Source: an uncultured Acidobacteriota bacterium
GTDB lineage: Bacteria; Acidobacteriota; Vicinamibacteria; Vicinamibacterales; UBA2999
Assembly (NCBI GenBank): GCA_963734635.1
Contig: CAVTIA010000013.1
Location: 14,649-78,648 of the forward strand
DNA length: 64,000 nt
Direction of reading: 5' to 3'
Of this stretch, positions 25,833 to 48,763 are shown one piece after another. Within the stretch, counting starts at the first letter, position 1; each line of letters begins with the position of its first letter. A program made the translations under genes and the position numbers. The notes beneath the pieces are model-generated. The model searched no databases and was not told the DNA's origin. It saw nothing but the letters and a program-made list of their open reading frames with translations.

Positions 25833-25906
25833 TCGCACCATCGCACCATCGCACCCTCGCACCGTCGGACGCACCCTCGCCCCCTCGCACCTCGCACCAT
25901 CGCACC
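25833..25906 (-). repeat. about 9-unit tandem array of TCGCACC(N) (GGTGCGA on the minus strand)
   Basis: Units at 25833, 25841, 25849, 25857, (degenerate 25865-25876), 25877, 25885, 25892 and 25900. Ends 1 nt before the aguA stop codon (25908-25910). Confidence 0.9.
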
Positions 25907-42412: not shown

Positions 42413-42415
42413 AAC

Positions 42416-42506
42416 GGTGCGATAGTGCGATAGTGCGAGGTGCGACGGTGCGGGGTGCGAGGGTGCGAGGTGCGACGGTGCGAAGTGCGAAGGTGCGACG
42501 TGCGGG
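42416..42506 (+). repeat. about 12-unit tandem array GGTGCGA(N)
   Basis: ggtgcgat agtgcgat agtgcgag gtgcgac ggtgcgg ggtgcgag ggtgcgag gtgcgac ggtgcgaa gtgcgaa ggtgcgac gtgcggg. The first unit is the 3' arm of a hairpin (42403-42421) whose loop holds the rex stop. Confidence 0.9.
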
Positions 42507-46148: not shown

Positions 46149-46193
46149 AATCCGTAAATCCGTAAATTCGTAAATCCGCAAATTCGTAATCGT
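46149..46193 (-). repeat. 5.6 tandem octamers AATCCGTA/AATTCGTA/AATCCGCA between HK stop and RR start
   Basis: Read directly. In the sense (minus) orientation the units are TACGAATT TGCGGATT TACGAATT TACGGATT TACGGATT. Confidence 0.9.
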
Positions 46194-47561: not shown

Positions 47562-48005
47562 ATGATTCGACCGTTGCTCGTCGGGCTTGCCACCACCTTC
47601 AAGCACATGTTCAAGAAGAAGGTTGCGGTGAACTATCCGGATGAAAAGATTCCGATGTTCCCGAAGTACCGCGGCAAGCAGGTGTTGACGCGCGACGAAA
47701 ACGGGCTAGAAAAGTGTGTCGCGTGCGGACTCTGCGCCGTCGCGTGCCCGGCGGATGCCATTTACCTCGAGGCGGCCGAAAACGACGGCAGTGTCATGGC
47801 TGGTCCCCGGTACGCGAGCGTGTATCAGATCCACAAAACTCGCTGCATCTTCTGCGGCTATTGCGAAGAAGCGTGTCCGGTGTCGGCGATTTTCATGGGC
47901 AAGGATTACGAGCTCGCCGTCTACAGCAAGGACGACTTCATCTGGGACAAAGAGGACCTGCTCGTCCCGCTCACGGCTCGGCCGGAGTCGTCTACGAGTC
48001 TCTAG
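47562..48005 (+). CDS. nuoI: NuoI-like 2x[4Fe-4S] ferredoxin subunit (NADH-quinone oxidoreductase subunit I), not next to other nuo genes
   Basis: ATG 47562. YPDEKIPMFPKYRGK, CVACGLCAVACP and CIFCGYCEEACP. Confidence 0.8.
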   Translation: MIRPLLVGLATTFKHMFKKKVAVNYPDEKIPMFPKYRGKQVLTRDENGLEKCVACGLCAVACPADAIYLEAAENDGSVMAGPRYASVYQIHKTRCIFCGYCEEACPVSAIFMGKDYELAVYSKDDFIWDKEDLLVPLTARPESSTSL

Positions 48006-48071
48006 TCTTTCGTCTTTAGTCTTTGGTCGGTCCTCGGACTAGAGACCAAAGACCAAAGACCAAAGACCAAA
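48001..48071 (+). repeat. heptamer-built long hairpin: (N)GTCTTT x3 facing GACCAAA x4
   Basis: Left arm 48001-48028 pairs with right arm 48044-48071. Mismatches fall mainly at the variable 7th heptamer position, plus one at the stem base. The 15-nt centre contains a GGTCC/GGACT mini-hairpin. Covers the nuoI stop TAG (48003-48005). Confidence 0.85.
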
Positions 48072-48088
48072 GGACCATACCCTCCGCA

Positions 48089-48763
48089 ATGCTGATCGGC
48101 GCCATCGCCGACATTCATGGCAATTTCGACGCAATGCGACGCGCCATGACGAGGCATGCGGATGTGCCGTGGTGGGTGTGCGTTGGCGATGTCGCCAGCA
48201 GCACCGGCGCCTACCCCGAGCCGCCGGCTCCGTTGTACTGGATCAAAGGCAACAACGAAGAGTTCGATCGGATTGCCGACTGGGACGCGGGCCGCGACGC
48301 GCCGCTGAATCTTTTCTACATCAGGAACGGCACTGCCGTGCGCGTCGGTCCACTTCTTGTCGCAGGTGTGGGCGGCACGTACGCTCCGAAGTGGTACGAC
48401 ACTCCGGCGGCACAACTGCCGCACACGCCGAAGGATGACAAACGCCGCCACTTTGTGCGCGAGGAGATCGAGGCCTGCAAACGGCTGCACGGCGTCGACA
48501 TTCTCATGACGCATGAAGCGCCGCGTCCATTCATCGTCAGCGCGGATGGCGATTCCGGTCCGGCGAAGCGGTGGGACGCGGGCAAGCGGCCGATCAACGA
48601 GCTGCTCGCGACCGTGAGGCCGCGACTGCACTTGTGCGGACACCATCACCGATTCGCGGAGACCGATCGCGAGGGAGTGCGGTCGGTCTGCATCGACCGG
48701 ATCAACCGGTCCTATCTGCTCATCGACGCCTCCACGGTCACATACCAGAAGATTGAGCAATGA
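48089..48763 (+). CDS. metallophosphoesterase family protein
   Basis: ATG 48089. IADIHGN, VCVGDV, KGNNE and LCGHHH. Confidence 0.75.
   Translation: MLIGAIADIHGNFDAMRRAMTRHADVPWWVCVGDVASSTGAYPEPPAPLYWIKGNNEEFDRIADWDAGRDAPLNLFYIRNGTAVRVGPLLVAGVGGTYAPKWYDTPAAQLPHTPKDDKRRHFVREEIEACKRLHGVDILMTHEAPRPFIVSADGDSGPAKRWDAGKRPINELLATVRPRLHLCGHHHRFAETDREGVRSVCIDRINRSYLLIDASTVTYQKIEQ

Follow-up and report, generated by a model that had tools for sequence, protein, structure and literature searches.

Introduction

Heptamer repeats of the STRR type in cyanobacteria were reportedly described by Mazel et al. in 1990, and to our knowledge neither strict polarity nor a large number of unit families is on record for them. 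REP/BIME elements are stable extragenic palindromes mobilised by RAYT transposases, and 23S rRNA intervening sequences (IVS) that contain an S23p/PF05635 open reading frame occur in Leptospira and Coxiella.

The heptamers GGGAATC of Xanthomonas and GGGGAYT of Nostoc form tandem intergenic arrays that usually lie less than 50 bp from a stop codon or overlap it (Rehm et al. 2015, PMC4692102). The Xanthomonas heptamers are over-represented and transcribed, form 70–75 convergent pairs, are rare between divergent genes, and vary strongly in length and sequence among close relatives; no regulatory role was found for them (PMC4692102). Cyanobacterial STRR are 7-bp repeats, capable of forming hairpins, that occupy the hupS-hupL spacer of two co-transcribed genes, and effects on stability, coupling and termination are among those proposed there (PMC2670836). 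By comparison, the TAACTGA repeats of Beggiatoaceae, cyanobacteria and Bacteroidetes are nearly always direct and sit just upstream of start codons, with 169 direct sets against a single indirect one (MacGregor 2015, PMC4679880).

Here we describe a hairpin of facing heptamer arrays at the 3′ end of nuoI in the 6.5-Mb genome (63% GC) of a soil acidobacterium (G000), which we compared with four congeners (G001–G004) and with more distant relatives. The host probably belongs to the Vicinamibacterales: among retrieved loci, the nearest match is to a MAG of that order, with 83.5% similarity over 3.7 kb. Positions without a contig name refer to the window, the stretch of 64,000 nt that was analysed. 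With a probability of roughly 0.72, the hairpin is a heptamer inverted repeat like those of STRR or Xanthomonas that this lineage acquired recently; on this reading its arms evolve by slippage, and its RNA is a generic intercistronic stem-loop without locus-specific selection.

Results

A stable stem-loop of facing heptamer arrays ends nuoI

The nuoI product is assigned to NuoI by NCBIfam (NF004537, 164.8 bits with a cut-off of 163; TIGR01971, 146.8 bits with a cut-off of 113). The gene is solitary, apart from the other nuo genes; on its 5′ side lies a divergent LytS/LytTR two-component pair, and 3′ of it come a phosphoesterase gene and methionine-pathway genes, a neighbourhood that recurs in relatives; the gene 3′ of the phosphoesterase encodes a bifunctional homocysteine S-methyltransferase/MTHFR (yitJ-like). 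The features of the junction are:

47562–48005, + strand: nuoI, 147 aa, two 4Fe-4S motifs, Fer4 domains; its stop lies inside the left repeat arm
47997–48028, + strand: left arm, a degenerate AGTCTCT followed by AGTCTTT, CGTCTTT, AGTCTTT and GGTC; the opposite strand reads as GACNARA units
48029–48043, + strand: centre, 15 nt, a mini-stem with the loop CUCG
48044–48071, + strand: right arm, four perfect GACCAAA units
47998–48075, no strand assigned: whole stem-loop, about 30 pairs, including an outer 4-pair helix GUCU/GGAC
48089–48763, + strand: calcineurin-like metallophosphoesterase gene (PF12850, 41.8 bits; PF00149, 39 bits)

A sequence-only reading of this DNA had proposed that (N)GTCTTT units facing GACCAAA units form a stem-loop straddling the nuoI stop codon. 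Its description holds base for base: TAG occupies 48003–48005, the units AGTCTTT, CGTCTTT and AGTCTTT occupy 48004–48024, and GGTC follows at 48025–48028. Each arm contains one further, degenerate unit, AGTCTCT on the left (47997–48003) and GACTAGA on the right (48037–48043), and TRF delimits arrays of period 7 at 47997–48028 (4.6 copies, 84% matches) and 48043–48077 (4.9 copies, 96% matches). Because the left array reaches into the coding region, the final codons of nuoI and its stop are provided by the repeat. The next gene begins with the ATG at 48089, which lies 18 nt past the right arm, as the earlier reading had it, and 13 nt separate that gene from the end of the stem-loop (48075). A chance origin of the repeat is excluded; shuffles of the window give an expectation of 0.00 for the 18-mer GACCAAAGACCAAAGACC with up to two mismatches.

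The stability that had been anticipated for the stem was borne out by RNAfold, which gives −37.9 kcal/mol for 47991–48081 compared to a mean of −20.1 ± 3.1 in 200 dinucleotide shuffles (z −5.83), none of which reaches the native energy. The main stem consists of 10+6+6 pairs and is interrupted by the single mismatches C48011/C48061 and A48018/C48054, at the variable seventh position of the heptamer where mismatches had been foreseen. The outer helix pairs 47998–48001 with 48072–48075, and in the predicted fold it ties up the GGA within a putative AAGGA ribosome-binding site of the next gene. A central mini-stem is present, but with four pairs (GGUC at 48029–48032 with GACU at 48037–48040, loop CUCG) rather than the five suggested. 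Alternative pairing registers likewise exist, but they are minor: the +7 and −7 registers reach −34.3 and −33.8 kcal/mol, a penalty of 3.6–4.1 kcal/mol, and each accounts for about 0.1% of the ensemble, while the optimal register holds 99.8%. We therefore reject a "breathing", multi-register stem as a special property of this hairpin.

No U-tract is present, as had been noted: the stem runs into GGACCATACCCTCC, and the + strand has no terminator-like site. Since the tail GGACCAUACCCUCC lacks a U-run, we rejected an intrinsic (Rho-independent) terminator. Rfam returned no family at its gathering threshold, and the sub-threshold matches were to generic hairpins only (mir-609, 28 bits against 98; P26, 19.9 against 36).

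Facing heptamer arrays are standard content of intergenic spacers

A genome-wide search for GACCAAAGACCAAAGACC at up to two mismatches gave 99 matches, compared to 0 for the reversed control, so the further GACCAAA-type copies that the sequence-only reading had suggested looking for are abundant. They fall into about 34 GACNARA loci, comprising 19 clear hairpins, 14 single arms and 1 direct pair. The excess extends well beyond this family. Among TRF arrays with at least 3 copies and a score of at least 40, 348 have a period of 7, compared to 1 with period 5, 17 with period 6, 80 with period 8 and 45 with period 9. The genome contains more than 130 canonical heptamer units, and at least 35 different unit families share the facing-array build. 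When adjacent heptamer arrays within 200 nt of each other were counted, 104 pairs were inverted and 2 direct, with a median gap of 23 nt. An architecture that had been called unusual from the single locus thus recurs more than 100 times in this genome, and it is documented in Xanthomonas and cyanobacteria; facing heptamer arrays are standard content of the intergenic spacers of this organism.

Arrays of other families with 7–8-nt units occur in the window at 1593–1631 (TAGCTGG, with a palindromic 14-mer), 25833–25906 (TCGCACCA, 10 copies) and 42414–42504 (GGTGCGA, 12 copies). An 8-nt array (AATCCGTA / AATTCGTA, 5 copies) lies at 46149–46189, in the spacer that separates the LytTR response-regulator gene from the LytS-like histidine-kinase gene on the minus strand.

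Every unit family has a single polarity. For GACCAAA hairpins this is [TTTNGTC]n-loop-[GACNAAA]n, in 19 cases to 0 in G000 and in 15 to 0 among unrelated public loci from Acidobacteriota and other phyla (jointly 34 to 0). Across families, no universal purine or G-rich rule for arm polarity was seen. Simple slippage accounts for neither this strict polarity, which extends to other phyla, nor the preference for a period of seven.

The position of hairpins relative to genes was evaluated on a gene map from our own crude, self-trained codon-usage predictor (5,827 genes), which underlies all statistics of this kind given here. The 104 inverted pairs divide into 61 in co-directional, 18 in convergent and 8 in divergent contexts, with 17 called "inside" genes; the 19 GACCAAA hairpins divide into 14, 3, 1 and 1 in the same order. 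Only 9% of intergenic hairpin sites fall in divergent spacers, which account for 25% of intergenic length. The median distance from the hairpin edge is 7 nt to the upstream stop and 15 nt to the downstream start, so the repeat nearly fills its spacer. This placement agrees with the Xanthomonas pattern of Rehm et al. (PMC4692102).

The nuoI copy is confined to the studied genome

Among the orthologous nuoI-downstream spacers of 19 relatives, none (0/19) contains the hairpin, which was seen in the studied genome only. The sequence-only reading had counted other copies and conservation in relatives among the signs of a real element; the copies are abundant, but the conservation is lacking. What stands in its place differs from relative to relative. 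In G002, (GTAGGCR)x4.5, a different heptamer array, likewise provides the nuoI stop codon. Other heptamers are found in G007 and G024, another short repeat in G018, a plain GC hairpin in G001, 19 unrelated bases in G003, and 0–15 nt in G011, G021 and G025; none of these spacers is an alignable empty counterpart of the nuoI site. The C-terminal tail of NuoI differs in every relative compared. No searched contig encodes an identical NuoI or phosphoesterase, and two metagenome scans, one with the hairpin centre and one with the downstream junction, gave no match.

The phosphoesterase start overlaps the nuoI stop in G021 (TAATG) and follows it by 5 nt in G011 and by 15 nt in G025, and this overlap or close spacing indicates that the ancestral junction was a tightly coupled operon. 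On this comparison, the hairpin would have pushed the nuoI-phosphoesterase junction apart to its present 83 nt in the studied genome. Many other relatives have no phosphoesterase gene and carry the methyltransferase gene directly 3′ of nuoI, as seen in G002, where the homocysteine methyltransferase/MTHFR gene directly follows nuoI.

The GACCAAA family as a whole has 85–169 matches in each of G002–G004 and is nearly absent in G001 (4 matches), and variant units (GACCGAA, GACCAAC and GACCAAG) occur in more distant genera. At five further GACCAAA-family sites of G000, the congeners have a same-family hairpin, another heptamer array, a GTAG-type REP dimer or a short repeat-free spacer. The same family, with changed unit counts and a related centre, is found at C7:86089 (G002, G003), C6:448027 (G001, G002, G004) and C3:550600 (G004). 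At C3:948052, where G000 has a heptamer hairpin, the orthologous spacers of G001, G002 and G004 contain a REP dimer, whose GTAG-headed sequence reads GTACGTAGTGTCCGGCTTnAGCCGGAC... Repeat-free spacers are those of C6:448027 in G003 (TAG-CCG-ATG) and C3:134247 in G002 (10 nt). Since every occupant state is found among the congeners, these spacers have been colonised repeatedly.

Between species, the number of units, their variants and the loops all turn over fast. At C6:448027, nonetheless, four of the genus's five species have a family member in the same place. The class thus includes more than short-lived copies and may bring a slight benefit. Individual hairpins can persist for a genus yet change quickly. 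In the C6:448027 orthologue of G002 (on contig C389), the loop has gained about 150 nt, in the form of three more nested palindromes, and loops therefore accept insertions. C6:448027 also provides the one clean filled/empty pair, with G003 empty, on which the marks of a MITE (terminal inverted repeats with a target-site duplication) could be looked for; neither a convincing target-site duplication, beyond a possible ATG, nor conserved termini were seen.

Individual pairs between the arms are not kept up

We shuffled the order of units within each arm of 99 hairpins, which preserves length and composition. The shuffled hairpins had a mean energy of −50.0 kcal/mol compared to −51.0 kcal/mol for the native ones (median z −0.4, Wilcoxon p 0.03), and the nuoI copy pairs no better than its own shuffles (−37.9 compared to −38.6 ± 3.6 kcal/mol). 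Unit-by-unit compensation between the arms was thus not found in these 99 hairpins. Under selection on an RNA stem, transitions would be tolerated in just the one arm in which they lead to G-U pairs, and an asymmetry between the arms would therefore be expected; none of this type was found, the unit-variant spectra of the two arms being equal (chi-square p 0.24). It is the facing of complementary arrays that creates the stem, not the upkeep of individual pairs. A selected RNA or protein-site function is not favoured, given that the arms are uncompensated and their variant spectra the same.

Compared with random intergenic DNA, the hairpin loops show somewhat more structure, with z below −2 in 21% of loops compared to 10% of controls (p 0.013), at most a slight hint that arrays may nucleate around pre-existing hairpins. 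The loop of one GACCAAA-type hairpin (G000:C14:783709–783816) holds a canonical terminator (GGGGCCCGGC AAAG CGCCGGGCCCC, then TTGTTTTTT), and that of another (G000:C11:176915–177031) a REP stem (GTCCGGCTTCAGCCGGAC); arrays can therefore bracket pre-existing hairpins.

PF05635 genes lie between facing arrays

Genes of the PF05635 family (23S-rRNA-IVS protein, a four-helix bundle) are associated with facing arrays. All eight such genes of G000 lie between facing arrays of 7- or 8-nt units:

L183–L190, e.g. G000:C4:86745–87338 and G000:C14:409720–410306: the eight PF05635 genes, with arms such as (CGGGATC)x7.6 ... (TCCCCGA)x8.1

Most of the 22 above-threshold copies in G001–G004 are placed likewise, as is one gene in a Bacteroidetes MAG. 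Under a strict automated bracketing criterion, 4 of the 8 PF05635 genes of G000 qualified, compared to 15 of 5,827 genes overall. Where the arms around PF05635 genes have units that match "empty" families (ATCCCCG, AAAAGTC), their polarity is identical. One PF05635 gene of G002 is bracketed by arrays of ATTTACGG / CAATCCGT, a unit related to that of the array at 46149–46189 of the window. A PF05635 gene with GACCAAA arms, that is, a cargo-bearing master copy, was found neither in G000–G004 nor among 120 public loci, and our literature search found no paper linking PF05635 proteins to heptamer arrays.

It is tempting to speculate that heptamer-array hairpins, including the nuoI copy, represent the empty state of a widespread cassette that, when complete, holds a PF05635 gene between the same facing arrays, and that the protein or a partner enzyme writes, spreads or maintains the arrays. 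We regard this as unlikely for now; if true, it would explain why the period is seven and why the outward polarity never varies.

Discussion

The nuoI hairpin has the traits of heptameric SSR or STRR-type repeats: at least three head-to-tail 7-nt units per array, dispersed and mostly intergenic arrays, an excess of period 7, and convergent stem-loop pairs. Repeats of this kind are already described in Xanthomonas and cyanobacteria, and the nuoI hairpin adds a copy of a known kind. Like the Xanthomonas and Nostoc repeats, it belongs to tandem 7-nt units near stop codons that form facing pairs, are rare in divergent spacers and change rapidly. It differs in its A/C-rich unit, in its acidobacterial host, and in a genome that has dozens of unit families rather than one; the GACCAAA unit has no G-tracts, so that a quadruplex is impossible. 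With STRR hairpins it shares heptamer arrays able to fold between genes, but the units and the phylum are different, and strict polarity and many families are documented in G000. The TAACTGA repeats, too, are abundant intergenic heptamer arrays across distant phyla, whereas in G000 the facing arrangement is the rule.

The resemblance to REP/BIME elements lies in a stable palindrome right after stop codons; REPs fill the same spacers in congeners, and both could plausibly act as generic 3′ stem-loops. A REP stem, however, is a unique GC-rich palindrome with a GTAG head, while the arms of the nuoI hairpin are microsatellites without one. Both Y1-transposase (RAYT-like) genes of G000 (C11:449770–450000 and C12:230000–231000) are flanked by GTAG REPs and not by heptamer arrays, and the REP system is therefore separate. 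For these reasons (no GTAG head, array arms, Y1_Tnp genes not flanked by heptamers), we rejected membership of the nuoI hairpin in the REP/RAYT system. The 23S IVS share a long inverted-repeat stem with the arrays, and the PF05635 genes of G000 sit in the loop of heptamer-array stems. The nuoI hairpin, by contrast, lies in an mRNA spacer rather than in rRNA and has a 15-nt centre without an open reading frame; with no PF05635 gene found between GACCAAA arms in G000–G004 or the 120 public loci, we did not class it as an IVS-like PF05635 cassette.

The most probable history begins with a spacer that was originally 0–15 nt long, in which the hairpin would have arrived or expanded recently, its arms then changing by slipped-strand mispairing. 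In the process, sequence of the left array probably took the place of the variable C-terminal tail of NuoI, and the array now provides the stop codon. Transcription of the nuoI-phosphoesterase-yitJ-like unit would yield an RNA stem-loop of −38 kcal/mol directly behind the stop codon. By analogy with REP and STRR hairpins, such a stem-loop could be expected to hinder 3′-to-5′ exonucleases or offer a site for a double-stranded RNase, and to leave translation of the next gene less tightly coupled. These effects at the RNA level would be generic by-products of the structure rather than a function selected at the nuoI locus. The sequence-only reading had suggested an RNA stability or processing element, or a protein site; a generic role of that kind is possible.

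Could the stem-loop nevertheless be a selected post-transcriptional element, one that, by stabilising the nuoI message or through cleavage by RNase III, determines the ratio of nuoI to phosphoesterase/yitJ-like expression? It folds strongly immediately after the stop codon and between co-directional genes, it has an outer helix that includes the GGA of a putative ribosome-binding site, and the class prefers 3′ ends and avoids divergent spacers; the same proposals appear among those made for STRR hairpins (PMC2670836). Yet the hairpin is absent from 19/19 orthologous sites, several of which have genes that overlap or lie 5–15 nt apart, variants in one arm are not compensated unit by unit in the other, the two arms have symmetric variant spectra without wobble-tolerant asymmetry, and Rehm et al. 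saw no regulatory role for the Xanthomonas repeats. On balance we consider such an element decidedly improbable. A phase-variable switch, in which gain or loss of a 7-nt unit shifts the reading frame or the spacing of the start signals and so toggles a gene, could be suspected because a unit of seven is not divisible by three, the array extends into the end of nuoI and the number of units varies among species. The TAG at 48003–48005, however, spans the AGTCTCT/AGTCTTT junction, in the second unit of the array, so that unit changes further in leave NuoI untouched, and the downstream ATG is 18 nt outside the array; we give this reading almost no credence.

The lack of upkeep of pairing fits another alternative, namely that a protein, for which a PF05635 (Avd-like) member would be the candidate, binds tandem GACNARA units on DNA or RNA, the hairpin being a side effect; the arrays might even be the work of the PF05635 protein or an associated enzyme, which would make them or keep them up. 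The units hold to their consensus while the pairing is not preserved; of the 34 family loci, 14 have one arm only and another is a direct pair; polarity never varies (34 to 0, other phyla included); and PF05635 genes are bracketed by facing 7–8-nt arrays in G000 (8/8; 4/8 under the strict automated test compared to 15/5,827 genes), in most of the 22 cases in congeners and in one Bacteroidetes MAG. On the other hand, no PF05635 gene with GACCAAA arms appeared in the five genomes or the 120 public loci, no paper linking the family to heptamer arrays was found, and more than 130 unit types set against 8 paralogues make one-to-one recognition unlikely. We rate a recognition array of this kind as distinctly unlikely at nuoI, and favour instead the recent copy of a known kind of heptamer inverted repeat.

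At the nuoI locus, the hairpin is then a recent passenger between nuoI and the phosphoesterase gene, and should be annotated as a repeat and not as a regulator. In several bacterial phyla, few repeats are as over-represented as heptamer microsatellites. With dozens of unit families, strict polarity, competition with REPs for spacers and a reproducible link to PF05635, this genome offers a rich test case that makes the question of their origin, period and function experimentally approachable.
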